64,000 nucleotides of DNA from the NCBI GenBank assembly GCA_963764975.1, contig CAVXUF010000002.1, positions 467,809-531,808 on the forward strand. Reading direction: 5' to 3'. Under the pieces are notes generated by a model, which was not told the origin of the DNA, did no database searches, and worked only from the letters and a program-made list of their open reading frames with translations. Below, piece after piece: positions 920 to 39,112 of the stretch. Every line of letters begins with the position of its first letter. Position 1 is the stretch's first letter. A program made the position numbers and the translations under genes. Source of the DNA: an uncultured Chloroflexia bacterium. GTDB taxonomy: Bacteria; Chloroflexota; Limnocylindria; Limnocylindrales; CSP1-4.

Positions 920-1102
920 GAACGTCGCCGGTCCCCCGAGCTCGAAGCCCCCGTCCCGTTGGCTCGCAGGGTGTTCCACATCCTGCGCCGGGGCGACGGC
1001 CGCGGGTCCGAGGAGCCAGCGGCGGCCCGCATCATACCCCGAGCCCGCGCGGACGGACAACGGCGGCGGACCTCCGGCGCCCGCGTCCCCGATGATGGGG
1101 CC

Positions 1103-1915: not shown

Positions 1916-1943
1916 TGTCGGGCATGCCAGGCCCTGTCGCACG

Positions 1944-2750
1944 ATGCTGACCAGCCGGACGAACCCGCGGGTCGTGGCCGTCGCCGCTCTCCGCCAGCGG
2001 CGCGAGCGCGACCGTCATGGCCTGACCGTGGTCGACGGCGCCCGCGAGGTCCGTCGGGCGGTCGAGTCGGGGGCCGCGGTGGTGGAGGCCTTCATCTGCG
2101 ACGCCCTGCTGGCCGGGGTGGATGCCAGGGCCGCCCTCGACGCCCTTCGCGCGGCGGGGACGCCGATCACGTCGGTCAGCGACACGGTCTTCGCCAAGCT
2201 CGCGTTCGGGGAGCGGACCGAAGGCGTGCTGGCGGTCGTCCGGATCCCGGACCTGCGACTCCCTGCGCTGGTGTTGCCCGTCGATCCCCTCGTCGTCGTC
2301 ATCGAGGGCGTGGAGAAGCCCGGCAACGTCGGCGCCGTGCTCCGTTCAGCGGATGGGGCCGGGGCAGACGCCCTTGTCGTCGCATCGCCCAGGACGGACC
2401 TCTACAACCCCAACGCGATCCGGGCCAGCGCGGGCACCATCTTCCGCGTGCCGCTGGGCGCGGATGCGTCCCCGGCCGTCGTGGCGTGGGCTCGATCGAA
2501 CGGCCTCCGGATCGTCGCGACACGAGTCGATGCCGAGCGCACCTACGCCGAGACCGATCTTCGCGGTCCGTTGGCGATCGTGCTCGGCGCCGAGACCGAC
2601 GGGCTGACCGAGACCTGGCGCGGCGACGACATCGAGTCCGTTCGGATCCCCATGCGCGGCATCGCCGACAGCCTGAACGTGTCGGTGAGCGCGGCGATCC
2701 TCCTCTACGAGGCCCGTCGACAGCGGGACGCGGAGCAGGCTCCAGGCTAG
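1944..2750 (+). CDS. TrmH/SpoU family RNA 2-prime-O-methyltransferase (RlmB-like)
   Basis: SPOUT motifs VVIEGVEKPGNVGAVLRSADGAG, ASAGTIFRVP and IVLGAETDGL, and a C-terminal SLNVSVSAAILLYE. Confidence 0.8.
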   Translation: MLTSRTNPRVVAVAALRQRRERDRHGLTVVDGAREVRRAVESGAAVVEAFICDALLAGVDARAALDALRAAGTPITSVSDTVFAKLAFGERTEGVLAVVRIPDLRLPALVLPVDPLVVVIEGVEKPGNVGAVLRSADGAGADALVVASPRTDLYNPNAIRASAGTIFRVPLGADASPAVVAWARSNGLRIVATRVDAERTYAETDLRGPLAIVLGAETDGLTETWRGDDIESVRIPMRGIADSLNVSVSAAILLYEARRQRDAEQAPG

Positions 2751-22392: not shown

Positions 22393-23589
22393 CTAGGCGC
22401 CGTTGTCGAACGTCTCCGACAGCGCCTCGACGAATTCCTCCGGCTTGACCACCCGCACGTAGTTGCCAAGACGGGCGGCATCCTCACGCAGACGCGAGAA
22501 CGAGATATACCGGCAACTTCGCGCGAGAGGCTTGCGCAGTGCCTTGGCGAACGTGGGTCGGTTGATTTCCTCGCGCACCTTCGCGCGCCTCTCGTCCGGC
22601 GCGACGATATACAGCGGGATGTTGAGGTTCGGCGACAGGGCGAGCAGGTCGGCCATGCGCAGCAAGCCCGAGTAGACGGCCGTCGTCGCCTCCACCTCAA
22701 ACGCCGCGATGATGGCTTCGTCCCGGAGCCACAGCACGTCGATCCGCTCGATGCGCCTCACCATCTCAGGAGCGAATTGCACCGGCAGGTCGTCGACCAC
22801 GCCCAGCGTGTCACCGAGGCGCTGGCCTCTATAGACGCGCCCTCGGTCGCCACGATCGACCCAAAGCTGGAGGCCCATCGCGCTGCCCAATTCGAGGAGG
22901 AGCCCCTCGATTTCCGTATGCGCTTTGACCTCGACGACGCTGCGCCCCTCCTCGTCACCCACAATCGGGGCGACCGCCGCCGGAAGCTCCGGCTCGGTTG
23001 CTCCGGCATCGTCGCTGGGCGCATCGGTCGGTTCCAGCGCCAGGGGCTCCTCGCGCGCGGCCCGAGGCGGCTCCTCCTTCCCCAGCCGCGTGCTCCGGGT
23101 CAGGTGGGCCTTGTTGTACGGACGCTCGACAGGGTTGGCCGCCGCATCGCGAATGGCCTCGATGATCATCTCCGCGTCAACGGGCGCAATGTGCTGGGGG
23201 GACCCAAAGAAGTGCCCCTCCCAGCCCCGCGGAGGATTCTTCAACTTCTCGTACCAGCTGAAGCGCGTCACGAGCGACTCGACGGGGATTGCGGTCTCCG
23301 GCTTCAACTGCACTACGACACGGGACCGAACACGAGCGGGAAAGGCCTCCGCCGACCAGACCACCGTCTTGTCGTCTTGGTACGGGGCTGACGTGACCTC
23401 CAAGATCCCGATGAAGCGGGAGATCCCGGTCAGGTAGCAGAGCATGTAGTCGCCGGGCTTCATCTGCTTGACGTAGCCCCACCGGCTGAGGCGAAACCCG
23501 GAGATGCTCGCCCCGGCGGCCAAGAACTCCTGCCACGTCTTCCACGTGAACAGGTCCAGCCAATACGACCGTTCGTTCCCTTCGGTCAT
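22393..23589 (-). CDS. EVE (PUA-like) domain protein fused to a C-terminal restriction-endonuclease-like domain; candidate modification-dependent nuclease
   Basis: N-terminus SYWLDLFTWKTWQEF...MKPGDYMLCYLTG...IGILEV matches the EVE-domain pattern. The C-terminal half has HTEIEGLLLELG...IDVLWL...AFEVE, a candidate PD-(D/E)xK-like core. Confidence 0.5.
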   Translation of the reverse strand: MTEGNERSYWLDLFTWKTWQEFLAAGASISGFRLSRWGYVKQMKPGDYMLCYLTGISRFIGILEVTSAPYQDDKTVVWSAEAFPARVRSRVVVQLKPETAIPVESLVTRFSWYEKLKNPPRGWEGHFFGSPQHIAPVDAEMIIEAIRDAAANPVERPYNKAHLTRSTRLGKEEPPRAAREEPLALEPTDAPSDDAGATEPELPAAVAPIVGDEEGRSVVEVKAHTEIEGLLLELGSAMGLQLWVDRGDRGRVYRGQRLGDTLGVVDDLPVQFAPEMVRRIERIDVLWLRDEAIIAAFEVEATTAVYSGLLRMADLLALSPNLNIPLYIVAPDERRAKVREEINRPTFAKALRKPLARSCRYISFSRLREDAARLGNYVRVVKPEEFVEALSETFDNGA

Positions 23590-23690: not shown

Positions 23691-23921
23691 ATGGCGGCGA
23701 TCCCGCAGGAGCCCGACAAGGTGGTCCTGTTCGACCAGCGCCGGGCCGTCGTCCAGTCGCTCGGGGACGAAATCGCCCAAATGACCCCCGAGGGCATCCA
23801 GCAGGTCGACGCCCTCCTCGTCGAGAGGGTGGAGACGTCCGACCGGCACGTGACGCGGGTCATCTGGGCGGGAGCGGCGCGGCCGTTTGTTGGACCAGTC
23901 TTGGCCACCGAACTTCGATAG
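23691..23921 (+). CDS. small hypothetical ORF in a divergent intergenic region
   Basis: 76 aa with coding-like sequence (VVLFDQRRAVVQSLGDEIAQMTPEGIQQVDALLVERVE). The open frame extends upstream to 23637 without a start codon. Confidence 0.25.
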   Translation: MAAIPQEPDKVVLFDQRRAVVQSLGDEIAQMTPEGIQQVDALLVERVETSDRHVTRVIWAGAARPFVGPVLATELR

Positions 23922-24063: not shown

Positions 24064-24642
24064 GTGACCGACTTGGCTTGTCAACTGTTGGCCCAAGCCT
24101 GGTTGCATACCTGTTTTGAACCTCGTGATCGTACCCATAGCTGGACCGCCGGAGGTGAAGCCGGGGAATGTATTGGTCTTTGGGGTCTTTTTACCGCCGG
24201 AGTATCGTCCACCGATGGCCGCCGACACATGGGTCGCCCCTTGACTTCTCCGGCCAGCAAACGCTGTTCGTGCGGCGGCGGCTGCCGGCGCGCGCTCACA
24301 GCCGATCTCGTTTCGCTACTCGATGGCGCCGCCGACGGCTACGAGGCCACCACCGGGACCCGCCCTCGTGGTTTCTGCTGTCCACTCTGCCTTCGTCTGC
24401 TTGATCGCGGCTGCGCCTCGCGTGCACACTACCCGGCCGAGCAGGTGGGCGGTCGTCGCTGGACCCTGCTATGCACGGCCTGCAACAGCTTCCTGGGCAC
24501 CGCTTACGAGTCCGACGCGCACCGTCATTGGACCGCAGCCGAACCCGAGGTGCGTGTCGCCTCATCGACCGTGCGAGGTGCGTGTCGCCTCATCGACCGT
24601 GCAATCTCTGCGCGTCGATGCGAAATGAAAGCGATTGGATGA
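24064..24642 (+). CDS. HNH endonuclease domain protein
   Basis: CCPLC...AHYPAEQVGGRRWTLLCTACNSFLG matches the HNH layout (CxxC, H-x-x-P, GG, LLC-x2-CN). The C-terminal tail is encoded by a duplicated 28-bp unit. Confidence 0.5.
   Translation: MTDLACQLLAQAWLHTCFEPRDRTHSWTAGGEAGECIGLWGLFTAGVSSTDGRRHMGRPLTSPASKRCSCGGGCRRALTADLVSLLDGAADGYEATTGTRPRGFCCPLCLRLLDRGCASRAHYPAEQVGGRRWTLLCTACNSFLGTAYESDAHRHWTAAEPEVRVASSTVRGACRLIDRAISARRCEMKAIG
24557..24612. repeat. perfect tandem duplication, 2 x 28 bp (gaggtgcgtgtcgcctcatcgaccgtgc)
   Basis: Positions 24557-24584 and 24585-24612 are identical. The duplication lies in the last codons of the HNH ORF, about 25 bp upstream of the next ORF. Confidence 0.9.
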
Positions 24643-25759
24643 CGCCGAACAGCCAGGCCTCGACATCCGGTCCATAACTGGTCGTGACGACCCAGGCCTG
24701 CGACGCTTTGTCGAGGGTCTTGCGGCATCAGATCGGCGAATCCGGCTGACTGTCCAGTGGCCAGTGCCTGACCACGTCAGGCTCGCCGCAATGAGCTGGG
24801 CGTACCTGCATGCATTCGCTCGCCTCGGCTACGGCTACATCCTGACGCCGGCTCTTGATCCGGTGAGGCGCGCTCTGATTGAGCCGAGTACGTCGGGCCC
24901 CGTCCCCCCAACGATCGCTCTATTTGGCGAAGGGAGGGTGCTTTCCGCCGGCGATCTATCGCTCGTGATGGCCGTTCGTCGATCGCCGTTCAACTACGGG
25001 CTCGTCGGTCTTGGTGTCGACTTCGGAAGCGTTACCGGCGTGCTCCCGATATCGGCCGATCGCGAGGCGGCCTGCTATCCGAACCTTGAGCGGCTCCTAG
25101 CCGTCGGCAGTCCGTGGATCGTGGACATCGCGCCCATCGAGAGGATCATTCCGGCGGCCGTCGGCACCCATTTGAAGGAGCACTTCACTCTCACGACCGG
25201 ACCGTATGACGTGGCGGTGACAACTCGCGAGATGGCAGCCGAGGTGGTAATGGACTCGGCGATCACGCCAGAGCGTCGGCGCGTCAGGCGTCAGTCTCGT
25301 TTCCCACCCGAAGAGCCTCCGGGTCGAGCCCCCGACCACCTAACGAGCCAGGAGTGGCGGGGCCTGCTGGAGGCTGCCGTCACAGACTTCTCGCCGGCGA
25401 GTCCCGTTCCCTCGCAGGCGCGCGGAGTAGCCTCGCTCCTGCGCCTCCTGCCGTCAGCACGTCGGCGCCACTTTGTCGATCTCCGCCACGTCCTCGTCGA
25501 GGAAGGGTCGAGCGCCCGGATCGAAACGGTCAATGGCGACCAGATCCTGGCGGGAATGCGACGTCTTGAGCAACAATTCAAGCTCGTCGATCGCCCGCGG
25601 ATCGTGCATCGCGAAATGGAGATCGGCACTCCTCCTCGTCCCTGGTATTGGGCCCGCATCACGTGGCCTGACGAGACCGTCGAGGACGTTGGCCCGTGCC
25701 TATCCCGTGGGACGCTGCTCGTGCAACTTAGTGAGCACCTGCTCCTGTCGAAACGATAG
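24635..25759 (+). CDS. hypothetical protein, partner of HNH gene
   Basis: 374-aa ORF overlapping the HNH stop by 8 nt (TTG start in the ORF track; an internal GTG/ATG is also possible). No recognised domain. Confidence 0.4.
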   Translation: MDDAEQPGLDIRSITGRDDPGLRRFVEGLAASDRRIRLTVQWPVPDHVRLAAMSWAYLHAFARLGYGYILTPALDPVRRALIEPSTSGPVPPTIALFGEGRVLSAGDLSLVMAVRRSPFNYGLVGLGVDFGSVTGVLPISADREAACYPNLERLLAVGSPWIVDIAPIERIIPAAVGTHLKEHFTLTTGPYDVAVTTREMAAEVVMDSAITPERRRVRRQSRFPPEEPPGRAPDHLTSQEWRGLLEAAVTDFSPASPVPSQARGVASLLRLLPSARRRHFVDLRHVLVEEGSSARIETVNGDQILAGMRRLEQQFKLVDRPRIVHREMEIGTPPRPWYWARITWPDETVEDVGPCLSRGTLLVQLSEHLLLSKR

Positions 25760-25982
25760 GCTCACCCTCGCACTGACACGGCCAGGATGATCAGGTCACC
25801 CTCGTCTCGCTGGTAGCCGAGGCGCTCCATCTCCAGGGGCCATTTCTGCCGGAGGCTCGGCTCCCAGAGACTGACCCAGCCTGGCAGGCGGCGGTGTATG
25901 GGCGAGGGTCGCCAAGGCTTCCGCACGGCGACCAGCGCAGAAGAGGCTATGCCTCCTGCACTGCGTCATCGACAATGGCAAC

Positions 25983-27593
25983 GTGCACGCGCCCGTTCGG
26001 CCTGACGACCCTGCGCAGAACGAGGCCCAAGCTTGGTTTCTCGGTCTCGGCGCCGACGCACGACTGCCGTTGGCAACGCGCTTCTACGAAGAAGGCAGGC
26101 ACAGCGGAACGTTCTGCGCTCTTGCCCCCACGTCGTACCGGGCAAAGGCCCTAAGCGCACCGGGGTGGGACATTGGTCACGGATCGCACGGCCCAGGCTT
26201 CATGATCGAGCGAGCCGGGGACGAGGAAGTCACCACCTACGTGAGCAACTCGTCGGCGCCGGTGGAGCCCCTGGTACTGGATCGGGACTTTCACGGAGTT
26301 GGGGCTTCCTATCGAGAACTGGCTCAGGAGTTCCGGCTGTTCCATCGACTCTACAGTGACCCTGGATCTGGTCGCCTATTCCAGTTCGACGATGCCGGGA
26401 ACGAGACGCTAGCCGGCGAACTCGCAGCAGATCATGTTTGGGTTTTGACCTCGCTGGTTCGGCAATACCAAGCGGCAAGGCAGCTCGATCTGCTCCTGTT
26501 CATCGACAGTGGCGTCTACTACGACGCGTCACTCACAACTCCGGCCGAGCGGGAGTGGGTCACGCCGGACCTGAATGCGCGGCTCAGCGTCGGAACCGCC
26601 GGTGGACGGCCTTTGAGCAAATTCCTCGCCACCCGAGTCCTGCCTCCCCCACCAATCGAGGCCTCCGGCATCTGGCCCTTCGAAGCGGCCGATACCTACT
26701 TTCCGGACTACATCATCGGCACGAACGACGTTGGGGACCCCATTCGCTTTACCTGTGATCCCGACAAGCTCGCTAACTACTTCGGCGCTAACCCAGGCGC
26801 ACCGAACTACCTGACGCCAGTGCACTTTCGACGCGAAGTTCTCGTGAAGTACTTCGGTCGCCCTGATCTCTACCGGGTCGAGGATGGGTACCTCCGGTGC
26901 CGAGCCTTGTGGGGCCTGAGGATGGACAACGACTCACCCGACACCGTCATCGTCTGGCTTGGCGATCTCGGCCTGTACCTACCGGCGGCGGAGCGGGACT
27001 ACTGGCGCGCATTCAATGTCGCCCCAGCTCGGCCGATCAGTGACTCCACGTATCAGCGCGCGATCCTGGGGCAGTTCGCTGACTCGACGTCGGAGGACCT
27101 GCGTTTTCGAGCGATCTACCGTCGCATTGGCAAGGCGTGGCTGGACCGATTTGGGTGGGCACTGTTCTTGGAGCCCGAGCCGGGCGACGCACACCTGCTC
27201 GACTCCGTGCGTCTCCCGCTGCACGACACCGACGCAGAGCTTGAGGAGACGACCCGAACCTTGGCGAAGTTGCTTGTGGACTCGCTCAACGAGGCGGCCA
27301 TCGCGCGCTCATTGCCGGAGGGCCCTGAGGGCGAGAAGGGCATCTCCAAGCTCGACCGCTGGTTCACCGAGTTCGGATACCCAAGCCGCGAGCGTGACAT
27401 CGCCTTTCTGCGAAGTCTCCAGCTCGTGCGCTCCAAGGGAGCGGCCCACCGAAAAGGCAGGGACTACGAGAAGGCCCTGGAACGCGCATTTGGAACCAAA
27501 CGCAAGGGCGACGCCGCGGGTGACCTCCTCCAGAGATCGGTCCTCATGTTGCAGGACCTGATGACCTTCGTGGCTCCGGAAGCCGGGACGTAG
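25983..27593 (+). CDS. large hypothetical protein
   Basis: 536 aa with no family recognised by eye. Its C-terminal region LVRSKGAAHRKG fits an R-x5-H HEPN-like motif, but this is weak. Confidence 0.45.
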   Translation: MHAPVRPDDPAQNEAQAWFLGLGADARLPLATRFYEEGRHSGTFCALAPTSYRAKALSAPGWDIGHGSHGPGFMIERAGDEEVTTYVSNSSAPVEPLVLDRDFHGVGASYRELAQEFRLFHRLYSDPGSGRLFQFDDAGNETLAGELAADHVWVLTSLVRQYQAARQLDLLLFIDSGVYYDASLTTPAEREWVTPDLNARLSVGTAGGRPLSKFLATRVLPPPPIEASGIWPFEAADTYFPDYIIGTNDVGDPIRFTCDPDKLANYFGANPGAPNYLTPVHFRREVLVKYFGRPDLYRVEDGYLRCRALWGLRMDNDSPDTVIVWLGDLGLYLPAAERDYWRAFNVAPARPISDSTYQRAILGQFADSTSEDLRFRAIYRRIGKAWLDRFGWALFLEPEPGDAHLLDSVRLPLHDTDAELEETTRTLAKLLVDSLNEAAIARSLPEGPEGEKGISKLDRWFTEFGYPSRERDIAFLRSLQLVRSKGAAHRKGRDYEKALERAFGTKRKGDAAGDLLQRSVLMLQDLMTFVAPEAGT

Positions 27594-27661: not shown

Positions 27662-29119
27662 CTAGGCGACGAGGTTGCCACGACGAGGCTTGTCGGGCCT
27701 CGGATAGCCGAGCCGAACGAGTTCGTCCTTCCACAGTCGATTGAGGATGGCCTGTCGAAGGCTGACGTTCCGCGGCAACAACTTGCTGACCTGATGTCGG
27801 CTCGGATATCTGCCCTCAGCGTGGATTGACCGAATCGCCGCCAGGATTAGGTCCTGCCGATGCCGTTGAGCTTCCATGGATTGGTCCTCGACTAATTGAA
27901 GATGGCGCTCTCGAATGAGCCGGCATTCGTCGGGATACAGCCGACTGAGCTGACGGGCGTCGACACGAAGGTCCCTTCGCACCGACCGAAGCGACGGTGG
28001 GACCTCCTGGCCGACGGCCGCGCGAAGCTTCCTTCTTACTCGGTTCCAGTCGAGGACGCGGTGTGTCTCCGTCGACTTCGGGATGTATGGGACCAGGGTC
28101 GGGCCCATGGTCAATTCAAGAAGCGTTACGCGACCAGCGAGGAAGTCGGGAAGGCGAAAGCCTGACGCGGCACAGATCCTGAGTGCGCCACCGATCGTCG
28201 GCCTGCGACGTCCGTCCTTCCACAGGCTGACGGTCCCCGCGCTCATCTGGATCATGTCCGCAAAGCGGATGTACTTGCCACCGGTACTGCGCTCGACCGC
28301 AAGTTGAACAGCGGCCGACGTTGCCACCGGGCTAACCACTTCGCCCGCGGCGGGAGGGTTCGCGATGAGATCGCAGAGGGCCGCCGTGACGTACTCCTGC
28401 CAGTTCAAGACGCGCTCATCGAGGTCCCCTTCGACGGCCTTCACGGCCTCCCATGCGACGCCGAGGAAGCGTCCGCATTCGCAGTAACCGGGCCGTGCCC
28501 ACGCTGCTAACGTCCCCCGCTTGGCTCGACAGCTCGGATCTGAGCAGGCCGACCTGAGCTTGACCCCGTGTCGGATGCATACCTCGAGTTCGGTGAACTG
28601 CCAGAGCAGCGGCTCATAGATGCCGGCAGGCGGTTGTGCGGCGGCGCCAATGGCGGGGCTGGGGACTGGATGGCTCCATTCGAAGTAGCAGCAAGGGCAG
28701 TAGGCGCGGTGGATGCGAAAGGCTCGCTTGGTCGGGAGGACGGGCGCCCAACCAAGGAGCGTCGTCGACCGGATGTCCTCTCGTCCCGTGAGCCGGCCCA
28801 AAGCCTCCGCGATGATCTCGCCGGTGTTCCATGGCCCGATCAGCGTTGAGCGGGGTTTGCGCAGGAGGTCTCGAGTGACGGCCTCGTAGTCAGCCCGAGT
28901 ACGACCTGGCCGCGTCGCGTCACTTCCGGCGTCGGCGATCCAATGCAGGAGCTCGACTGGCGGGATGCGGTGGTCCCAAGCGAGTCCGATGACGTAGCCA
29001 GCGAGGCTGACGACCATGCCGGTTCCCGTGTACTCGGGCGCTCGTCCTTGGAGGACGCTGCGTTCCGGCCACTTCTCAGCGCTGAAGTCCCAGCCCGCGG
29101 GATTCTGTTTGTCAGACAT
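27662..29119 (-). CDS. TniQ/TnsD family target-selection protein
   Basis: HRAYCPCCYFEW ... CIRHGVKLRSACSDPSCR ... YCECG is the TniQ zinc-binding-like pattern. The start is at ATG 29119, overlapping the upstream stop in ATGTCTGA. Confidence 0.55.
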   Translation of the reverse strand: MSDKQNPAGWDFSAEKWPERSVLQGRAPEYTGTGMVVSLAGYVIGLAWDHRIPPVELLHWIADAGSDATRPGRTRADYEAVTRDLLRKPRSTLIGPWNTGEIIAEALGRLTGREDIRSTTLLGWAPVLPTKRAFRIHRAYCPCCYFEWSHPVPSPAIGAAAQPPAGIYEPLLWQFTELEVCIRHGVKLRSACSDPSCRAKRGTLAAWARPGYCECGRFLGVAWEAVKAVEGDLDERVLNWQEYVTAALCDLIANPPAAGEVVSPVATSAAVQLAVERSTGGKYIRFADMIQMSAGTVSLWKDGRRRPTIGGALRICAASGFRLPDFLAGRVTLLELTMGPTLVPYIPKSTETHRVLDWNRVRRKLRAAVGQEVPPSLRSVRRDLRVDARQLSRLYPDECRLIRERHLQLVEDQSMEAQRHRQDLILAAIRSIHAEGRYPSRHQVSKLLPRNVSLRQAILNRLWKDELVRLGYPRPDKPRRGNLVA

Positions 29120-30263
29120 CGTCTGGCTCCGCTTCGCCAACGGGGTCATCCTCGAGGCCACGTTCACCCGGTCTCAGGGTGCGAGGGTCGTCGTAGTTGA
29201 CCGTGGGACGTGGAGGTGCAATGTCTTCCTGGACCGTCGATGGCGCGGTGCCCTCGAGGATCGCGATCACGTCGTCGATGGTCACACTCGCCTCCTCGGC
29301 AATGCGCTTCTCGAAGGCAACGAACCGATGCGCCAGCGACCGGAGTTGATGCGGCTGGAGAGGCACCCGCTCCCCCAACACGTCCTCAGCCGTGTACTTG
29401 GCTGGACGCTCGGCAAGAAGCCTGTTCGCACTGGCGATCCAACGATGCAACCTGGCCACCGAACCGACGCTGTAGGCCATCAGGAAGCTGAGCACGTCAT
29501 CACTTGCTGCAGGGGCCTTGGCGCCCATTACGGCAAGTTCGAGCGCAGCGATACGAGCGAACTCGAGTCGGTCTTTGTGCCCGCGGGTCGATTGATAGCG
29601 CGGAAGGTAGACCTCTGCAACGGCTGTTGACGTCGTGCGGTATTCGAGGACCTCGAAACCTCCGCTGAGGACCAGAATGACCCCGGCAGCCGCGGCGAAC
29701 TGGGCGAGCATCTCGGCCCCATCACCCGGCACGGCGACCGGGATTCGTCGTCCTCGCCGCTCGAAGCGGGTCACGACGACCACCTTGACCTTCCGATGCT
29801 CGCATTCGCTCGCGGCCGCGATCAGCTGGTCGGCGCATTCCTTCAGCTGTGCCCGTCGCCCCAGCACCCAACCTGCCGAAACGGATCGAAGCTCGCTGGA
29901 CGGGACCTGTACATCGGACCGGGCCGCTCCGAGCTTGCCCTGGATCTCCGCGAAAAGCGTGCGGAGGTCGAGCACGCCCTTACGATCGAAGGTCGCCAAG
30001 ACTGGGACCACTGGCGAAAACGATGGGTCGCGAAGCATCTCGAGACGGTGTCCGTAGGCAAACATGTTCGCGCCAATCAGCGTCGCGGCGTCGCAGTCTT
30101 CCCCGGTCGGTCCGTACACGAGAATCAGGGAACCTGCCTGCTCGGTTGAGAGGAGGGATCCGAGACGGTCCACGGCGACCTTTTGGAGCCGGTGCGCCGC
30201 GGGAGTCGCTTCCGCGTTGTCTGAGTCCGGCGCAGGCAGACCACGGGCGATCGCAAGGGTCAC
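29112..30263 (-). CDS. TnsC/TniB-position AAA+-like protein with degenerate Walker A (LILVYGPTGEDCDAATL, no Lys-Ser/Thr)
   Basis: It sits between the transposase and tniQ with GTGA/ATGA overlaps, and is about 383 aa. Its P-loop-like segment lacks the conserved GK[ST]. Confidence 0.4.
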   Translation of the reverse strand: MTLAIARGLPAPDSDNAEATPAAHRLQKVAVDRLGSLLSTEQAGSLILVYGPTGEDCDAATLIGANMFAYGHRLEMLRDPSFSPVVPVLATFDRKGVLDLRTLFAEIQGKLGAARSDVQVPSSELRSVSAGWVLGRRAQLKECADQLIAAASECEHRKVKVVVVTRFERRGRRIPVAVPGDGAEMLAQFAAAAGVILVLSGGFEVLEYRTTSTAVAEVYLPRYQSTRGHKDRLEFARIAALELAVMGAKAPAASDDVLSFLMAYSVGSVARLHRWIASANRLLAERPAKYTAEDVLGERVPLQPHQLRSLAHRFVAFEKRIAEEASVTIDDVIAILEGTAPSTVQEDIAPPRPTVNYDDPRTLRPGERGLEDDPVGEAEPDDV

Positions 30264-33148
30264 GGTGCGCCATCCTTGCCCGTGAATGGGATGACGTTGC
30301 CTCCGGATCCGACCTCCTCGAAGTCGTCAGCGCGATGACGGATCTTCGAACCAAAGATGAGTGCTGATCGAGCGTCGGAGGAAACCCGTGCGGCGGCCAG
30401 CTTGGGTGCTCGAGAAGACCTCGCCACGGCTGTGTGCTCGTCCTCAGGCACGACTGGGGCAGCCCACAGGGGTTCACGCGCCGCGCCGAGAACATCGCCA
30501 CGAGGCAGGTCGAGGCGCTTCGCGGCCGTTCGGCCACTCGCCTTCCTCGCCGCCGCCTGTTCGGCGATCAGGTCTCCTTCCCGCTCCAGCATTTCGACGA
30601 GCAGGTCCCCGAGCTTGCCGTCCTCGACCTGCTTGCGCCGGTAGTGGCCCTCGTTGAAGGCCAGGACTACCTTGGTGAAGAAGGAGAGTTCCAGGTAGGT
30701 CAGGTGGAAGCGAGCGATGGGCGAGCGTAGGACGCATCGAACCCAGCGAGCGGCGACAAATTCTCCATCGTCCGTGTGACGTGGGACGAACACCCACACG
30801 GCACCGATGTCGCCACGAATGATCCTCACCGTCACCTGAACGCCTTCGAGCCGAGGGTGCGTGAGGGCCTCATCCCAGTAGTAGAGACGGTTCACCCAGA
30901 TCCCATTGCTGTTGGAGACCTTCGGACGCCATGCATGTCGAACGGCCATCTCACGCTCGATGTGCGCACTCCAGCGGACGAGGCGCGACTGGCGCATACC
31001 GTGTTCGAAACGCGCATCCCAAGCTTCGTCTGTCGTCTGGCGGAGTGCCTGGATGACTCGCTCGTGCTCGACAAGCGCGTCCCGTTTGTCAACGAGCGCG
31101 ATGGCCTCCGCAAGGGGCCAGATCGCGTGGTTCCGGGGATCAAGCTCACGGTCCATGGCGCGCGCATTCTTGGAAATCTGGGTATTGGCCATCATCGCGT
31201 TGAACAAGTCGGTATTGATCGCCCCGAACCTCCGTTCGACCGGTAGACCGCCCCGGCCACTCGATTTCAGGCGGTACTTCACCTCAGAGCCGTGAAGCGC
31301 TAGGAACTTTTGGACTCGAGTGGTCTTGTGGACAAGCGCGTTGTCGAGAACGTAGACCTCGGACAGGAAGCCGAACTTTCGGATCTGGTCAGCGAGGGCC
31401 TCGAGGACGACACCCTCGTCGACCTCGCCGAAGTGCCAAGCCTGCCCGAGCTTCTTCCCCGAGAAGCCATCGACAAGTCGGAAGAGGCTCGGGCGCAGCG
31501 CGCCGTCCCGGGTGAAGCGCTCGCATACCCAGATGTCGGTGACGGTCGCGTCCCCATGAGCGATCTGGCCAGGGTATTGGCCGTTCGGCGACTCTGAGTC
31601 CGGATCGAACATGACCCACGGCTTCTTGGAGGCAGCACCCTTGTGCCCGACGCTCTTGAGCAGCGACTCGTAGATCGGACGTCCTCGGAGCCAGGTCAGG
31701 ATGGCCGGATAGCTCGGTGCTTTGATGCCTTGCTTGTTGGCGCGGGATAACACGTCGCGATAGAACGCTTTGGCCGACGGTTTTCGCCCAGGCGTGTCGA
31801 AGAACGCCGCTGCGCGGACGACCAGGAAGTCGTTCACCGGTTCGGCGAGGTGGCTGCCAGGTCTACCTGCATTCGGACGTTCGAGCAGGCCCGCGAACCC
31901 GCAGCCGATCTCAGCCCATTCCCAGTAACGCGTCTGCCATTCCCGGACAGTGGCCAGGGCTGGGTTCTTGCCCGCCACGACGGGAAACGCAATGCGCTCG
32001 CGCGCCCAATACTCCTGTAGAGCGACAAGTCGCTCCTCGGCAAGTTCGACCGCGTCAGGTCCTGCTCCATCGAACCGCGCCTCGATCAGGGCGAGGTTCG
32101 CTCGATCCTCATCGTCCGCGGGGCCGAGTCCACTCATCGCTCCAGATCTGATTGCTTGGTCGACGTCTGAGCGAGAGACCACTTTCGTCCTGCGTCCATC
32201 GGGACCGTCGATTTGCTTGAACGAGATGCTGCCCGCCGACGTTCGGACAATCTCGTACCGAGCATCGAGCCAGAGGACCATCTCGCCGGCCTTGAGATTG
32301 ACCGGTCCCGGCCGTCCTCCACCGACCGCGACCACCACTGGTGACGGCATCTGCGCGGCGACGACAGGCGAGAGGTAGGCGAAGGCCGCGTCCTCATACT
32401 CGAGTTCGTACGCCAACAGGTCGACATAGATCAGGCCGCTCAGGATGGCGATGCAGATGTCGTCCTTAGAGAACCCGCGACGACGCAGTTCGCCGACCGG
32501 GATACCTGGATGGTCTGCGACGCACGACCAAATCGCGGATGCGATCCCCTCCGGAACAGCGCATCCGATGAAGCTCGCAAGGTATTTGGCGTTGCTGATC
32601 TCCTTCTTGCTGAGCGACTCGATGACGATGACCGTGTAGGTGAGACCCCATTCGGCGGCGTAGTCGTCGCCGCTTGGACAGCGCCAGAGTCCGTCGACCT
32701 TGACGTAGAACCCTGGGTGCGCGTCGATCTGGTCGTCTACCGCCTTCTGCGTCTTGATGTCGACCCAGCCGGGAGCCTTGTCGCCCCAGAAGACGAAAGC
32801 GTCCATGGTTCCCCACTGCGATGGGAACCTGACCTTTCCGTCGTCGCCGAGCGTGGCAAAGACCCGCTTCACCTGCTCCTTGGGCTGCGCCGCGTACCAG
32901 AGGACTCGCGTCCAATACTCGAACAGCTTGTAAACGTTGTACTCACTGAACAATTCAGCTTCCCTCGTGCGACCCGCCTTCTTGCTCGCGATCCTCGCGC
33001 TGCCGTGGTAGCGATCGGGGCGGGTCTTTCGTGACGCACCGATTGCCGCCCAGACCCGCCGACAGATGGCTTCCCCGCCGGCCGATAGAGCTGGCGACAG
33101 TCCAGACCGGTAGGTTTCGAAATCCTCTGCCTCGAATCTGCGTTTCAT
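30260..33148 (-). CDS. fused TnsA-TnsB transposase (TnsA endonuclease-like N-domain + DDE/rve transposase)
   Basis: The N-terminal region aligns to the Tn7 TnsA catalytic core: SKKAGRTREAELFSEY.. (E), TMDAFVFWGD (D), VDIKTQ (K). The DDE domain has DATVTD ... VLDNA ... VERRF. The start is ATG 33148 (MKRRFEAEDFETY). Confidence 0.7.
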   Translation of the reverse strand: MKRRFEAEDFETYRSGLSPALSAGGEAICRRVWAAIGASRKTRPDRYHGSARIASKKAGRTREAELFSEYNVYKLFEYWTRVLWYAAQPKEQVKRVFATLGDDGKVRFPSQWGTMDAFVFWGDKAPGWVDIKTQKAVDDQIDAHPGFYVKVDGLWRCPSGDDYAAEWGLTYTVIVIESLSKKEISNAKYLASFIGCAVPEGIASAIWSCVADHPGIPVGELRRRGFSKDDICIAILSGLIYVDLLAYELEYEDAAFAYLSPVVAAQMPSPVVVAVGGGRPGPVNLKAGEMVLWLDARYEIVRTSAGSISFKQIDGPDGRRTKVVSRSDVDQAIRSGAMSGLGPADDEDRANLALIEARFDGAGPDAVELAEERLVALQEYWARERIAFPVVAGKNPALATVREWQTRYWEWAEIGCGFAGLLERPNAGRPGSHLAEPVNDFLVVRAAAFFDTPGRKPSAKAFYRDVLSRANKQGIKAPSYPAILTWLRGRPIYESLLKSVGHKGAASKKPWVMFDPDSESPNGQYPGQIAHGDATVTDIWVCERFTRDGALRPSLFRLVDGFSGKKLGQAWHFGEVDEGVVLEALADQIRKFGFLSEVYVLDNALVHKTTRVQKFLALHGSEVKYRLKSSGRGGLPVERRFGAINTDLFNAMMANTQISKNARAMDRELDPRNHAIWPLAEAIALVDKRDALVEHERVIQALRQTTDEAWDARFEHGMRQSRLVRWSAHIEREMAVRHAWRPKVSNSNGIWVNRLYYWDEALTHPRLEGVQVTVRIIRGDIGAVWVFVPRHTDDGEFVAARWVRCVLRSPIARFHLTYLELSFFTKVVLAFNEGHYRRKQVEDGKLGDLLVEMLEREGDLIAEQAAARKASGRTAAKRLDLPRGDVLGAAREPLWAAPVVPEDEHTAVARSSRAPKLAAARVSSDARSALIFGSKIRHRADDFEEVGSGGNVIPFTGKDGAP

Positions 33149-33660
33149 GTCGATGACCTGGCGGCGATGGGCACGGCTACGCAGATTGCACACAGTCCGC
33201 CTTCACGCGTGGCCTGACGGCGCAGACGCTCCGCTCGACGCAGTAGCGCCAAGTCCGGGTCACCCGAGTCGTGCCAGATCGCGCGATCGAGCAGCGCCAT
33301 CGGGACGACTCGCCCGACGCCGGCCAATGCCCGATGCGCTGCCCCGAAGTCACAGGCGTGTCGGATCGTCGTTCGGTCTGCCTGGCTCAGGGCGACATCA
33401 GAGCCAGCCCGCTCGTGTGACTGCAGGAACTCCGCATATCGGGTCTCGAGCGATCGCGCCGACACGCCGAGCGTGAGGCGAACTCGGTCGAGCACATGCC
33501 ATGGCATGTCAGCGTGCTTCGTATGCATTTCGAGAAGCACCTGGAAGGCTTCGTGCCATTGGGCGCCGGTGGGTCGCTGGCGGGCGGGACCGCGAGAAGG
33601 CGTGGCGACCGGAGTCGGCGAGTTCGCGTGATGGTGTGCATCGGAAGGCATGCCCACCAC
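33145..33660 (-). CDS. hypothetical protein translationally coupled upstream of tnsAB
   Basis: Its TGA stop overlaps the tnsAB ATG (ATGA). 171 aa as listed; the true start is uncertain (internal Met at MHTKHAD or MPWHVL). Confidence 0.35.
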   Translation of the reverse strand: MVGMPSDAHHHANSPTPVATPSRGPARQRPTGAQWHEAFQVLLEMHTKHADMPWHVLDRVRLTLGVSARSLETRYAEFLQSHERAGSDVALSQADRTTIRHACDFGAAHRALAGVGRVVPMALLDRAIWHDSGDPDLALLRRAERLRRQATREGGLCAICVAVPIAARSST

Positions 33661-34383: not shown

Positions 34384-34860
34384 GGTGAAAAGGCTCGGAC
34401 CCAGAATCCGGAGTTCCTGTGGACTTCCGGATGGCGCGGCTGCGGTCTCCGCGACGATGGTCGCGACCAACTGGCGTCGGACGCTTCGGAGGGCGACGAC
34501 AGGGTTACGGCTCCCCCGCCCAAGACGGAGCCGGGACCGCTTCGGCAGACCAATCAGGTCCGCGTAGAAGCGTTCGTTCTCGGGAACCAACGCGACTCGC
34601 AGGCCGGTGGCTCGACCGAGGATCGTCATGTCGGCAGCGAGCTGCGCGTCCGCCCAAGCCAGGTCGATGAGGTTGTCGGCGATCGACGTCGGCGGGAGCA
34701 GCGGTGTCACATGGTCGATACCACGGGGATCCTCGAGCATCGTCCGCAACAAGATGACGCGCCCTGAGCCGCGGCCTGTCTCTGGACAAGGGCGTTCCCA
34801 TTGCTCTCGCAGCTCTTCGGCCGTCGTGCCTTCGGGATGGACGCGCGTTCGGAGGCTCAT
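34039..34860 (-). CDS. hypothetical protein downstream of, and 4-nt overlapped with, the FtsH-like AAA+ protease gene
   Basis: 273-aa ORF. The N-terminal about 150 aa look protein-like. The 3-prime part overlaps the plus-strand HTH gene, so its extent is uncertain. Confidence 0.35.
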   Translation of the reverse strand: MSLRTRVHPEGTTAEELREQWERPCPETGRGSGRVILLRTMLEDPRGIDHVTPLLPPTSIADNLIDLAWADAQLAADMTILGRATGLRVALVPENERFYADLIGLPKRSRLRLGRGSRNPVVALRSVRRQLVATIVAETAAAPSGSPQELRILGPSLFTSPATVPADDAKSLPSVDRTLAQFNGETHTQETLAPKRLYESRKADVDSSVVQDVRRLHQRNVLVGQELRVDDVEVDSIWPKVNVPVDLAADSFVVEDEQSRPHAAAPNPRGKVR

Positions 34861-36236
34861 GCCGCCTCCGGCGTCATGAAGGCCGCCGCCTCGATCGCGG
34901 CCATCAGCTCGTCGCCCGTGAGTTCGGTCGCAGCATCGAGGGCTTTGGCGAATGTGGTGATCGGGCCGAAATTTGCCGCGACGATCCGCTCGGCCGCGGC
35001 GCGTGCCGAGACGAGCGTGGCCGCGACCACGGAGCCCAGACTGTCCTTCAGGTTTTCGGGCACATTGAGGCCGAACTCGGCGAGGGCCACCGGTGGGTGA
35101 CCAGCCTCCCAGCCCTGCTCCACGCGCTGGACCGCTCGATTCGTGGCCATCTCCAGATCCGCACCCGCCAATGAGGGCTCGCCGAGGATGGCGGCCTCTG
35201 AACAGGTTCCGCAGAACACGCTGATCAGGAAGTCGCGGTGCTCGTCATCAGGCAGGTCGTTGGGACTGATGCCTTCAAGGCCGAAATTCGTTTTCCCGCC
35301 GCCGTCGTTGTCGATCGAGACGGCGTGAACCCACGACGCGCCGTCGCCGCCACGGCCGGCGGCACGAGCCAGGATGACCAGGCCGGCGACATGACCGGCC
35401 TCATGGACGGCTGTCCGCCAGCGCGATGGGGAGTTCGTCTGCTCGGGCAGGATGTTGCCGGCGCGGCGCAGCGCCTCGACCAGGTCGGCGTCGACAAGGA
35501 CCGAACGTCCGGCGACCAGGGCCAGTCCGGCGGCGTCCTCGACGAACGCCTGGATGTCGGCCGGTGATCGGTCGCGACTGAGTCGGGCGGCCCGTCGGAG
35601 GTCGAGGGTGCCATCGGTCGGCCGAGACCGCGAGTACAGGGCGAACAGCTCGGCGCGCTCGTCCTCGTTGGGCAGGTCGAAGAAGATGTGCGTCCCCAGC
35701 CGACCGCTGCGGATGAGGGCGGGGTCCAGCTCCGCGGGGTGGCGATTCGTCGCCACGACGACGATCGGACCCTCGGAGGGGACCAACCCGGACAAGGTCG
35801 ACAGGGCCGAGGTCAGCAAAAGTCTGGTCGCCGGAGTATGGGTCCCGAATGCGCGCTGAACCGCCCAGGAGTCTGCCTCGTCGATGAAGACAACACTTTT
35901 CTGAGGAGCAGAAGCGAGCGAGCGGATGGCTCCCCGTAATCGGTCCGGGCTCAACTCGTCCGATGGGATCTCGTAGAGGTCCACCCCATCGCCCAATTGC
36001 GAGGCGAGGTAACGGGCGAGATGGGTCTTGCCTGTGCCGGGCGATCCGTAGAAGAGGATGCCCCGTGGTGGGACGGCGCCGAGGAGTGCGACTCGTTCGG
36101 GATCGCGGAGGCGAGCAAGGAGGGAGTCGACTTCGGCCATCGCGTGACCGATACCGACGACCTGCGATCGGTCGAACCGGGCCATCTCGACTCGGTGGGC
36201 ATCGAGCCAGGCTTGGGTGAATCGCGCCTTGAGCAT
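34857..36236 (-). CDS. soluble FtsH-like AAA+ ATPase fused to M41-type zinc peptidase (no TM domain)
   Basis: Walker A GSPGTGKT, Walker B VVFIDEAD and SRH SGRLG. The peptidase part has TAVHEAGHVAGL (HEXXH) and LAGADLEMATN, like the FtsH protease domain. No N-terminal TM helices. Confidence 0.7.
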   Translation of the reverse strand: MLKARFTQAWLDAHRVEMARFDRSQVVGIGHAMAEVDSLLARLRDPERVALLGAVPPRGILFYGSPGTGKTHLARYLASQLGDGVDLYEIPSDELSPDRLRGAIRSLASAPQKSVVFIDEADSWAVQRAFGTHTPATRLLLTSALSTLSGLVPSEGPIVVVATNRHPAELDPALIRSGRLGTHIFFDLPNEDERAELFALYSRSRPTDGTLDLRRAARLSRDRSPADIQAFVEDAAGLALVAGRSVLVDADLVEALRRAGNILPEQTNSPSRWRTAVHEAGHVAGLVILARAAGRGGDGASWVHAVSIDNDGGGKTNFGLEGISPNDLPDDEHRDFLISVFCGTCSEAAILGEPSLAGADLEMATNRAVQRVEQGWEAGHPPVALAEFGLNVPENLKDSLGSVVAATLVSARAAAERIVAANFGPITTFAKALDAATELTGDELMAAIEAAAFMTPEAA

Positions 36237-36401
36237 CTGTTGGACTCCGGGTGACGGGGTGTGTCATCCGAGGAGACCAGCTATGGGGCGCTAGGGGAAG
36301 CACGTCGGGAGGCTCTAGAGGCCGGGGTGCGGTCATTGCGATCTTTGGGACCGCGAATGGGCCCTTCCTTGACAGCGCCAGTGTCCCAACCATCGTCTGA
36401 C

Positions 36402-36608
36402 ATGAAGAGCCAGCGGTTCATGGGCACGGAAGAGGTGGGGCGCCGACTCGGTATGAGTTCCGAGTGGGTGCGGCGGCAGTGCATTGCCATGAAGATGCCG
36501 GCGATCGTCTACCGCACAGGTTCGCGATCGGTGTACCGGATCACCGAGGAAGGGCTCGCTGAGTTCCAGCGGCGATATGCGGGCACCGCTGACGATGTTC
36601 AGGACTAA
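36402..36608 (+). CDS. excisionase/AlpA-like HTH protein
   Basis: 68 aa from ATG 36402: MKSQRFMGTEEVGRRLGMSSEWVRRQ...IVYRTGSRSVYRITEEGL. Confidence 0.5.
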   Translation: MKSQRFMGTEEVGRRLGMSSEWVRRQCIAMKMPAIVYRTGSRSVYRITEEGLAEFQRRYAGTADDVQD

Positions 36609-36898
36609 GCGCGATCCGAGTACGGCAGCGAATGGACCCGATGGGTTGGTTTGCCTGTTCCTCGCGGGTAGGCGTCGTCGGCCGGCCGAACAGTAAGACT
36701 CTTACAGTGTCGTTGCGCTACACCATCTCGAGGAGCCACCTTGAGCCAGGGCGGCGTGGTCGCGTCTCTCGCATCGGCGCAGATCCGCGCCACTTGAAGC
36801 GAACGCCTAAGGCCACTTGCTGCCGTACTGGGCGCGATCCCATGCGGGCGTCAGGCCGAACAGGACACCAACGGACTGGCGCGCGGAGGCTGCGAGCT

Positions 36899-39112
36899 CT
36901 AGAGGTTGTCGGCACCCATGTCAGCCCAACCAGGGGGCCACAGCTCCATGTGATCCTCACCCTGCGGCGCTTGCGCGGCACTCTCGGGCCGACGAGGTGA
37001 GGAAGCCGTGGCCGCCTCCGAGAGCAACTCGTCGAAGCGAGCAGCGAGCTCCAGATCGGGACTCGCTGGAATCTCCCGGATCCCGTCGATCTGATCGAGT
37101 CGGTACTCGCTGATCCGTCCGACCAGGACCAGGTCTCCACGAGACCTGGTCAGACCGACGTAGACCAAGCCGGCCGTCTGCGCCGGCGCCGACCTGAACG
37201 GGAGGATCAGGATCACCCGTCCAGCCTCCCAACCCTTGAAGGAATGGACGGTGGAGACCTTGAGGCGGGCGTCCCCGAATGCGAATGTCTTCTTGTTCGC
37301 CTGCGCGATCCGCCATGGCGCGTCCTGTTCCCGACCCGTCGACCGTTCCATCATCGCCCCAGTGCGGGTGACGGGAAAGACGTGGTTCGTGCTCACACCC
37401 TGCTCGGCGAGGAGCCGGACAAGCGCCTGGCCCAGCGGCTTATCTGGGACCACGATCGCGACGTCGCGCGCTCGATAGTCTGGTTCGGCCTGCCACGATC
37501 GAAGCACGCCAATCACCTCCGCAGCGGCATCGGCCGGCCTGTGCGCCCTGATCGTCGAGACGGTGGCATCTGGAGGCAGGAGTCCATCCTCAGCCGCTTG
37601 AAGCGGAGGCGTCTTCAGAGACCACTCAGCGGCGAAAGTGGTGGCAAGAAGGACACTTGATGCCGGCAGCCTGATGGCCTTGCCGAGCCGATGGACGCGG
37701 CCCGTCGTTCCTCCAAACAGCCGGGCAATATCGCCGCGCGTCATGGCCGACTCACGCTCATACAGGCGCTGGGCCGCGTCGTATGCCAGGACGACCTCAG
37801 AAGCCCCAAGACGCTGGACTAGCTCGAACCAGGCGGGACTGAAATCCTGCGCCTCATCGATGAACACGGCGTCAAACTGGAGCGTATCGGGTACTCCACG
37901 CTGTTCGAGAAGGCGGATCGCAGACGCCGGCCAGTCAGCTTCGAGCGCCTGTTGATCGGCCGCCTCGTCGTCCCACGGTCCCGCCTCGACGGGGCGCGTG
38001 GCTCCGATCGGTGGAAGTGGCTCGCGGTAGTAGTCGTGGACGCGGCGGCACAGTTCGTGGAGGTGCAGGACGGTTACACGGTCTGGCCGGTACGCGACAG
38101 GGACGAGCCGGAGCATCCCTCGCACGTAGTTGGTCAACGTCCTGTTGAAGGTCAGAATCAGGGACCTCCTCCCACGCTGGGCCGACACGCCGGCCCGCTG
38201 TGCGAGGACAAGGGTTTTACCGCTGCCTGCCACGCCTTCGAGGCCCGTGTAGCCGTCACGAGGAACGGCGAAGTCCCGCTGCTCCTTGTTGAGGGTGATG
38301 GTCGCAAGCGCATCGGGCATTCGGCGTTCGTGGGTCAGCGCTTGGTCGAGGGCCTCGAACCACTGGTCCTCAAGAACCGCGGCTCGACCCAGGATCGGCA
38401 CCACGCGCAGTGGGTCGCTCACGACGAGGCCGTCGTGTCCGAATGCATCGACGTGGCGCGCGTCTGGATCCTGGGATGCCAGGCGTCGGGCATCGGCCGT
38501 CGATGACTGGGAAAAGAACAGACCCGCCCTCAGGACCCCGAATCGCCGCGAGTCGTCGTTGATCGCCTCGCCGATCTCCGGAGCGTAGACGCCATACACG
38601 CGCGAGCGGACGGCATTGAGGAACCTGAACGGCGAAGCGAAGCGCCCTTCGATCGGGCCCTCGCCAACCCAGACCCCTCGTTCGACCCGGAAATACTTCA
38701 GGTCCCAGTCGACGACATCCCAGAACATGCCGCCCGCGGTGCGGTGCAGCGCGGCGATCAGCGGGCGGTCCGCATCCAGGTGTGGGCGGACGTAGATGTT
38801 CCAATCGTGGGGAAGGACGTCATCAAGAAACCGGGCCAGACGACGTTCGCCGTCCGTCAACGGAGGGATGAACCTGTCGGGATCATTGATCTCCGCCCAT
38901 GCCGGACTGATCCGACCTTCATCCGCGGCGGTCAGGCGACGGAGCCCTGGATGGTGCTCCAGAAAATCACGGGTCTCGCCGTCGTCGAAGCGAGCCGAGA
39001 TGATCCCGGACCGGACAGCCAGAACCGTCGCATTGCCCAATTGCGGATGCCGGACACGCTCGCCGGGGCCGAGCGGGGTCCGTTCGTCAGGTCCTTCGCC
39101 CGCGAGCGTCAT
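36899..39112 (-). CDS. NERD domain + UvrD-like superfamily I helicase
   Basis: The N-terminal NERD-like region has HDWNIYVRPHLD. The helicase has motif I GVAGSGKT, motif II FIDEAQDF, and the C-terminal VHSFKGWEAGRVILILP. Confidence 0.7.
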   Translation of the reverse strand: MTLAGEGPDERTPLGPGERVRHPQLGNATVLAVRSGIISARFDDGETRDFLEHHPGLRRLTAADEGRISPAWAEINDPDRFIPPLTDGERRLARFLDDVLPHDWNIYVRPHLDADRPLIAALHRTAGGMFWDVVDWDLKYFRVERGVWVGEGPIEGRFASPFRFLNAVRSRVYGVYAPEIGEAINDDSRRFGVLRAGLFFSQSSTADARRLASQDPDARHVDAFGHDGLVVSDPLRVVPILGRAAVLEDQWFEALDQALTHERRMPDALATITLNKEQRDFAVPRDGYTGLEGVAGSGKTLVLAQRAGVSAQRGRRSLILTFNRTLTNYVRGMLRLVPVAYRPDRVTVLHLHELCRRVHDYYREPLPPIGATRPVEAGPWDDEAADQQALEADWPASAIRLLEQRGVPDTLQFDAVFIDEAQDFSPAWFELVQRLGASEVVLAYDAAQRLYERESAMTRGDIARLFGGTTGRVHRLGKAIRLPASSVLLATTFAAEWSLKTPPLQAAEDGLLPPDATVSTIRAHRPADAAAEVIGVLRSWQAEPDYRARDVAIVVPDKPLGQALVRLLAEQGVSTNHVFPVTRTGAMMERSTGREQDAPWRIAQANKKTFAFGDARLKVSTVHSFKGWEAGRVILILPFRSAPAQTAGLVYVGLTRSRGDLVLVGRISEYRLDQIDGIREIPASPDLELAARFDELLSEAATASSPRRPESAAQAPQGEDHMELWPPGWADMGADNL

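Follow-up and report, generated by a model that had tools for sequence, protein, structure and literature searches.

Does an uncultured Chloroflexia bacterium encode, in a single gene, an enzyme that recognises modified bases and cuts the DNA carrying them? The question is raised by a gene at positions 22393 to 23589, on the minus strand, of a stretch of 64,000 nucleotides from contig CAVXUF010000002.1, hereafter the window. A preliminary description of the window saw in this gene an N-terminal EVE (PUA-like) domain joined to a nuclease-like half and proposed a candidate restriction enzyme dependent on modified DNA. The presence of an EVE reader and of a nuclease fold, both predicted computationally from the sequence, supports the candidate. 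The gene probably encodes a DNA endonuclease that is self-contained and depends on modification (Type IV-like), and the most likely role is that of a single-gene defence enzyme cutting foreign modified DNA. The architecture is Type IV-like in that a reader domain is combined with a nuclease and there is no cognate methyltransferase.

Gene and domain organisation

The open reading frame (ORF) is uninterrupted, and the GC content at its first, second and third codon positions (GC1, GC2 and GC3:.66,.46 and.85) is a typical coding profile for a genome of about 70% GC. The protein of 398 amino acids aligns end to end with 37 homologues with zero frameshifts. All motifs quoted in the preliminary description are in place in the translation: YWLDLF at amino acid 9, MKPGDYMLCY at 43 and IGILEV at 60, followed by HTEIEG at 224, IDVLWL at 283 and AAFEVEATT at 295. 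Other long ORFs overlap the gene on either strand, and these look like shadow ORFs because they are rich in arginine and their GC content is not highest at the third codon position. Neither a sigma-70-like promoter nor an intrinsic terminator was detected around the gene, which is uninformative given the high-GC organism. The features of the gene are as follows.

22393..23589, minus strand: complete coding sequence, 398 amino acids plus stop, an EVE-linker-NmeDI_C fusion (ORF and translation, homologue alignment, GC3)
23095..23577, minus strand: EVE/PUA-like domain, amino acids about 5-165, predicted modified-base reader (Pfam, profile, Foldseek, AlphaFold2)
22945..23094, minus strand: linker of low complexity, rich in acidic residues, proline and alanine, amino acids about 166-215 (predicted local distance difference test, pLDDT, below 50 at amino acids 170-211)
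22396..22944, minus strand: NmeDI_C domain, nuclease module of PD-(D/E)xK type, amino acids about 216-398 (PADLOC, PF27126 on homologues, AlphaFold2)
22690..22740, minus strand: predicted catalytic motif, D284 at the start of strand beta2 and E298-V-E300 on or just past beta3 (alignment, AlphaFold2 strands)

The linker differs in both length and sequence when the homologues are aligned.

The N-terminal EVE domain

The assignment of the N-terminal part to the EVE domain is well above chance in several comparisons. The Pfam model EVE (PF01878) matches amino acids 39-98 with 26.9 bits against a gathering cut-off of 23 (expect value, E, 5.6e-6), and the archaeal EVE family PRK00809 of NCBIfam is matched weakly over amino acids 9-145. 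A family profile compared with solved chains recovers MJECL36 (E 9e-10) and PH1033 (E 3e-6) with approximately 130 residues aligned, and with the same profile (alignment A2, E up to 10) no solved chain was matched beyond these two archaeal EVE proteins.

A full-length AlphaFold2 model was built from 38 sequences, and pLDDT is mostly 83-98 in the N-terminal domain. When the model was used in Foldseek, PH1033 (1wmm) was found with a template modelling (TM) score of 0.80 and E 1.4e-9, and 2p5d likewise with a TM score of 0.80. PH1033 and MJECL36 lead the list at E about 1e-9; behind them, at E values of about 1e-6 to 1e-5, come YTH domains from eukaryotes and further EVE proteins. The PUA-like pseudobarrel of the predicted domain superposes on solved EVE structures. 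The N-terminal domain is a predicted reader of the PUA superfamily, in the UPF0310 (PH1033/MJECL36) branch of EVE. Six aromatic residues (W10, W19, Y52, W78, F83 and W123) are invariant in the homologue alignment and are candidates for the pocket that would hold a modified base.

The YTH matches bring in a different explanation, namely that the protein is an RNA-targeting nuclease in which the EVE/YTH-like domain recognises a modified base in RNA, such as N6-methyladenosine (m6A) or a tRNA modification, and which acts as an abortive-infection or toxin-like effector. The YTH domains, which bind m6A-RNA, are the next-best structural matches after the two archaeal EVE proteins, public pipelines label relatives as 'predicted RNA-binding protein', and RNA targeting has been proposed for some Type IV-like systems (PMC11090510). 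However, the nuclease module has its homologue in that of R.NmeDI, for which cleavage of double-strand DNA is proven (PMC2095814), and the same module occurs fused to Mrr_N, which serves a DNA restriction enzyme as its DNA-binding domain. Moreover, the EVE and YTH-like domains of VcaM4I and Thermococcus gammatolerans McrB bind modified DNA (PMC7897488). An RNA target is considered very unlikely.

The predicted C-terminal nuclease domain

In the C-terminal half, the preliminary description had pointed to a pattern of the form H.E...D...E.E, compatible with a restriction-endonuclease fold, and to the absence of a clear catalytic lysine. The Pfam set searched, which was without the PF27126 model, gave no family match in this half. 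The PADLOC model REase_II (PDLC03534) matches with E 7e-15, amino acids 222-349 being aligned to model positions 176-309. This model has 351 positions, the same number as there are amino acids in R.NmeDI. The Pfam family NmeDI_C (PF27126) is precomputed on a fragment in the database (P0002, with 100% identity across 65% of the window protein) and on essentially all full-length relatives. No HNH domain was matched by Pfam in the 398 amino acids and no Mrr_cat domain at E up to 1. A match to WCX/WYL at amino acids 366-395 was weak and was treated as noise.

The Foldseek search with the full-length model returned EVE and YTH matches only, and amino acids 212-398 were therefore modelled separately. 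The resulting model (pLDDT 91, predicted TM score 0.89) has the topology alpha-beta-beta-beta-alpha-beta, which is the canonical PD-(D/E)xK core, and the structure prediction proposed as a check in the preliminary description thus gave a nuclease fold. The core begins with a long helix at 218-237, containing H224 and E226, and a strand at 241-244, after which there is an insert. It continues with a strand at 285-289 following D284, a strand at 292-299 that includes E298 with E300 just past it, a helix at 305-318 with R311 and D314, and a strand at 326-330. The Foldseek matches at the top in PDB are the Type II restriction endonucleases EcoT38I, BsaWI and EcoO109I, all of them weak, and the named viral matches of the model are endonucleases. 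A PD-(D/E)xK restriction-endonuclease fold, homologous to the C-terminal half of R.NmeDI, is thereby supported for this domain together with the PADLOC match and the PF27126 relatives.

Conservation was assessed in an alignment of 269 sequences: in addition to the window protein, it has 120 close homologues and 148 representatives of clusters, many of the latter with other N-termini. D284 and E298 are each found in 267 of 267 sequences and E300 in 264 of 267, with lysine at this position once (P0008, E-x-K), so that the D...E.E part of the proposed pattern holds. R311 and D314 are each present in 266 of 267 and D248 in 256 of 268 aligned sequences. The near-invariance of the three carboxylates argues for an active enzyme.

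The third motif position of PD-(D/E)xK nucleases is held by K, or by E, Q or N as in BamHI, BglII and MspI. The lysine that was missed in the preliminary description is indeed lacking, and a glutamate stands in its place. By analogy with BamHI, where glutamate replaces the catalytic lysine (PMC4081073, section 22), the missing lysine is explained by a D...E-x-E variant of the motif.

Loss of activity would be another explanation for the missing lysine. The protein, derived from a nuclease but catalytically inactive, could then bind DNA and serve, for example, as a regulator or to mark modified DNA, and the weak structural similarity to active nucleases fits this. Against it, the acidic residues are kept in 264-267 of 267 relatives, which come from different phyla and have different fusion partners, and this is hard to explain without catalysis; the glutamate at the lysine position is functional in BamHI; and R.NmeDI, in which this domain is also present, is active (PMC2095814). 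Inactivity is accordingly given a low probability.

Distribution and modularity of the family

A word-indexed search gave more than 4,343 homologues, and the top 120 are nearly all 360-410 amino acids long with EVE and NmeDI_C. Relatives were found in at least 580 bacterial and archaeal species when approximately 185,000 species genomes were scanned, one genome per species. They occur in Chloroflexota, Acidobacteriota, Desulfobacterota, Planctomycetota, Actinomycetota, Methanobacterium, Methanothrix and an Aenigmatarchaeote, with an identity of approximately 43-50%. Such a sporadic spread across domains, with relatives in unrelated bacterial and archaeal phyla at moderate identity, is typically seen with accessory genes that are transferred horizontally. 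The preliminary description had named housekeeping EVE proteins as the homologues that would speak against its proposal; those found are two-domain proteins with a sporadic distribution. In public databases they are labelled "hypothetical protein" or "predicted RNA-binding protein", and no experimental study of the EVE-NmeDI_C family was found in the literature library searched.

When the C-terminal domain by itself was used in an exhaustive HMMER search, 1,668 clusters at 50% identity were obtained. Of the 148 representatives at the top of the list, 53 have the EVE domain; the others have different N-termini or are fragments. Among the long members without EVE that were examined (n = 53), Mrr_N was found in 11 and TPR repeats in 3. 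NmeDI_C thus behaves as a portable cleavage cassette paired with varied sensor domains, a pattern of cassette swapping also reported for modification-dependent endonucleases (PMC12191111; PMC7641849). The NmeDI_C fusions appear to be a sensor-swapped nuclease family that is largely unannotated. N-termini seen in the relatives P0122-P0266 include Mrr_N, TPR arrays, other PUA-like sequences and, by eye, possibly a HARE-HTH-like domain, and several have no Pfam match.

Genomic neighbourhoods of the relatives

The window protein has no exact match in the assembly collection, and the context was taken from its relatives. ORFs of at least 80 amino acids clustered from 83 loci show no conserved partner; the commonest neighbour family is found in 9 loci and its positions vary. 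Small ORFs (35-130 amino acids, within 700 nucleotides of the gene) were not conserved in these loci either. In 39 loci the two nearest proteins to the left and to the right were surveyed, 148 in all, and no Pfam family has more than 5 occurrences among them. Integrases were found three times, IstB twice and DNA methylases (N6_N4_Mtase/MTase_II) likewise in only 2 of the 148 proteins, and each PADLOC defence model matches at most two. There was no enrichment of methyltransferases or defence genes in the 39 loci, and no defence-island association is therefore claimed for the family as a whole. The EVE-NmeDI_C gene is thus autonomous and without a cognate methyltransferase: the relatives have no conserved partner, and only rarely does a methyltransferase lie beside them. 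A defence role is proposed because of the architecture and the patchy distribution, more than through guilt by association.

The neighbourhood comparison suggested in the preliminary description gave a divided result, since some relatives are found in defence islands and most among ordinary genes. Island-type loci contain Cap4, Lamassu and IS110 (L001), an integrase with TIR and SAVED (L002), or a PIN-PhdYefM pair and a YgjP-like gene (L086); housekeeping-type loci are exemplified by L004 and L087. In L086, at positions 1056-3244 of that locus, a relative with 64% identity (P0003) adjoins the YgjP-like (PF01863) gene and the PIN/PhdYefM toxin-antitoxin pair.

The genes that flank many relatives, such as citrate synthase, dnaA/gyrB and two-component sensors, would also suit a role in housekeeping or DNA repair, in which the enzyme detects damage or aberrant modification of host bases and nicks nearby, and the codon usage of the window gene is host-like. 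However, the scattered distribution over unrelated phyla is what an accessory gene that moves horizontally would show, synteny is not conserved, and some relatives are located in clear defence or mobile islands. A repair function is therefore regarded as improbable.

Comparison with known systems

The closest characterised relative in the nuclease half is R.NmeDI from Neisseria meningitidis, whose C-terminal domain is homologous to that of the window protein. R.NmeDI has 351 amino acids, is a tetramer, needs only Mg2+, recognises RCCGGY and cuts 12/7 nucleotides outside on both sides (PMC2095814). It is described as a symmetric Type IIS enzyme with a recognition domain and a separate C-terminal cleavage domain (Pingoud et al., PMC4081073, section 34), and the NmeDIP family has been placed in the PD-(D/E)xK superfamily with low reliability (Orlowski and Bujnicki, PMC2441816, Table 1). 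Since R.NmeDI cuts at a fixed distance, the NmeDI_C half is probably the cleavage module. R.NmeDI differs in that it has its own N-terminal recognition half, which is replaced by EVE in the window protein, the match being to model positions 176-309 of 351. Furthermore, R.NmeDI has an overlapping cognate m5C (5-methylcytosine) methyltransferase and cuts unmodified RCCGGY, whereas the window gene has no methyltransferase beside it and its product is expected to require a modified base.

EVE-PD(D/E)xK fusions were listed as putative Type IV enzymes in a computational census (Bell, Wolf and Koonin 2020, PMC7641849, section 9), and the window protein is placed in a known class because of that prediction. 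The core architecture of EVE and PD-(D/E)xK and the predicted role are common to both, and the likeness is at class level. The concept is thus already predicted, and Pfam by now includes a model for each of the two domains.

VcaM4I and TspA15I have the same layout as the window protein, a single polypeptide with EVE at the N-terminus, then a linker, and a nuclease at the C-terminus, and they too are without a methyltransferase. In these enzymes the nuclease is HNH (beta-beta-alpha-Me), whereas in the window protein it is PD-(D/E)xK, and no sequence similarity to VcaM4I was detected by the family profile, provided that VcaM4I chains are in the structure set searched. The MspJI family (MspJI, AspBHI and LpnPI) follows the same logic with a PUA-superfamily, SRA-like reader, a C-terminal PD-(D/E)xK nuclease and a cut at a fixed distance from the modified cytosine, and MspJI is tetrameric, as is R.NmeDI. 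However, its reader is SRA-like instead of EVE and there is no detectable similarity in either domain (PADLOC at E up to 1 gave only REase_II and the weak WYL match), so the relation of the window protein to MspJI is one of analogy, not membership. Mrr is also a single-polypeptide Type IV enzyme, with an Mrr_N winged helix and an Mrr_cat PD-(D/E)xK domain. Mrr_N is the domain also found fused to NmeDI_C in relatives, but Mrr differs from the window protein in both reader and nuclease subfamily.

Proposed mechanism and its weight

By analogy with VcaM4I, in which the EVE domain flips the modified base (5mC or 5-hydroxymethylcytosine, 5hmC) into a hydrophobic pocket (PMC7897488), the EVE domain of the window protein would bind DNA and flip a modified base into its hydrophobic or aromatic pocket. 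The flipped base might be 5mC or 5hmC, possibly N6-methyladenine (6mA), or a hypermodified base. Binding would tether the NmeDI_C domain, which would cleave without sequence specificity, to the modified site, and the linker, with approximately 45 disordered residues (amino acids 170-211), could allow the nuclease domains of two or four subunits to assemble. Cleavage is probably at a distance from the modified base, as with MspJI; a dimer or tetramer of NmeDI_C with Mg2+ would cut both strands approximately 7-12 nucleotides, about one helix turn, away. Host DNA, without the modification, would be spared and incoming modified phage or plasmid DNA destroyed. We infer the base specificity, cleavage distance and oligomeric state by analogy only.

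Several observations weigh against the reading as a modification-dependent DNA endonuclease. In the Foldseek comparison the EVE domain is roughly equally near to RNA-binding YTH domains and to canonical EVE domains, and for this reason an RNA ligand keeps some probability. The canonical lysine of PD-(D/E)xK is absent, with glutamate at the third motif position, and E226 in helix alpha1, which belongs to the H.E part of the pattern in the preliminary description, is only moderately conserved (175 of 248 aligned). Most relatives are located amid ordinary metabolic and signalling genes and not in recognisable defence islands. Finally, the support for an EVE-NmeDI_C enzyme is wholly computational.

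If the prediction of a modification-dependent endonuclease holds, the gene represents a widespread single-gene defence family with more than 4,300 proteins in at least 580 species. The tested set of PUA-type readers combined with nucleases would grow from EVE-HNH and SRA-PD-(D/E)xK to EVE-PD-(D/E)xK, and the NmeDI cleavage module would be a portable cassette common to classical Type IIS and Type IV enzymes. A further possibility, which we hold to be rather unlikely, is that this is a large Type IIS-like modification-dependent family which excises short fixed-length fragments like MspJI and whose archaeal-type, UPF0310/YTH-like pocket has a specificity other than that of the 5mC/5hmC readers, for example for 6mA or a hypermodified base. 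If so, epigenomic mapping would gain a new enzyme, and this would be the first EVE-PD(D/E)xK restriction enzyme to be characterised. Cutters that act at a fixed distance and depend on a modified base serve the mapping of DNA modifications, and methyl-specific restriction hinders the transformation of actinomycetes. The value of the gene is as a candidate for annotation and enzymology; the concept itself is not new.

Surroundings in the window

The GC content of the window is approximately 70% and drops to 62-66% from about 20 kb on. To the left of the EVE gene there are ordinary-looking genes for a PALP enzyme, GNAT, RibD_C and a PQ-loop protein. To the right there are an HNH-like ORF, two ORFs of no known function and a module with TniQ, an ATPase-like protein and a Mu-like transposase, and further to the right an IetA-like AAA ATPase, a NERD-UvrD candidate, HEPN-NACHT, a kinase/PP2C/VWA triad and FtsK/SpoIIIE. 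No methyltransferase was found among the scanned ORFs of the window. The EVE gene thus lies in an accessory region in which the GC content is lower and mobile and defence genes occur.

The preliminary description had put the gene at the start of this accessory region. Its position at the edge agrees with the drop in GC content, but its codon usage does not resemble that of the transposon genes: GC3 is.85 for the EVE gene,.84-.87 for the host genes to the left,.72-.75 for the transposon genes and.63-.74 for the ORFs at 24064-27593. Because its GC3 is host-like and unlike that of the adjoining transposon genes, the EVE gene is placed at the margin of the accessory region and does not obviously belong to the transposon element.

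24064-27593, plus strand: three ORFs of 192, 374 and 536 amino acids between the EVE gene and TniQ

The ORF of 192 amino acids, which is divergent to the EVE gene, is the neighbour that had been called an HNH gene. It is rich in cysteine, has a flat GC profile over the codon positions and overlaps the 374-amino-acid ORF by 8 nucleotides. The adjoining ORF exists as described, but the match to HNH_5 is below threshold (18 bits against a cut-off of 27.5) and the ORF is not a conserved neighbour of the relatives. The 374-amino-acid ORF has no match and the 536-amino-acid ORF has no Pfam or PADLOC match.

The EVE gene might conceivably belong to a multi-gene system that also includes the divergent HNH-like ORF and the other two ORFs, as these adjoin it and the neighbours are without known function. 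This is the least probable of the explanations considered. The neighbours never recur beside the relatives in 83 loci, their codon usage differs (GC3.63-.74 against.85) and the HNH match is below threshold. The three ORFs may instead be uncharacterised transposon cargo.

An ORF of 76 amino acids at 23691-23921 (plus strand) is found in the 470-nucleotide gap upstream of the EVE gene. Its GC1, GC2 and GC3 of.75,.42 and.87 are coding-like and it has no family match. An ORF of 123 amino acids antisense to it is shadow-like.

The transposition module at 27662-33193 (minus strand) consists of TniQ (PF06527), an ORF of 383 amino acids without a match and an ORF of 977 amino acids with a weak match to the C-terminal part of Mu transposase, and can be likened to Tn7 or Tn5053. 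A search for terminal inverted repeats from approximately 21.5 to 36.5 kb gave only matches at chance level, and there are no tRNA genes in the window.

At 34857-39112 (minus strand) an AAA ATPase matches the IetA models of PADLOC (E 2.7e-19). A 273-amino-acid ORF without a match lies downstream of it, and a UvrD-like helicase of 737 amino acids beside it is a PADLOC candidate for 'NERD+UvrD' (E 1e-53). The segment 39711-46607 begins with a HEPN_Swt1-NACHT protein of 1266 amino acids with HEAT-like repeats (plus strand), followed by the triad of kinase, PP2C phosphatase and VWA protein (minus strand), which presumably resembles the TerY-P defence system. An ATPase of the FtsK/SpoIIIE family is encoded at 52180-53598 (minus strand), surrounded by many large ORFs without a Pfam match, for example one of 1295 amino acids at 59290-63177. 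The accessory region from 20 to 64 kb may include a conjugative or integrative element of actinomycete type.

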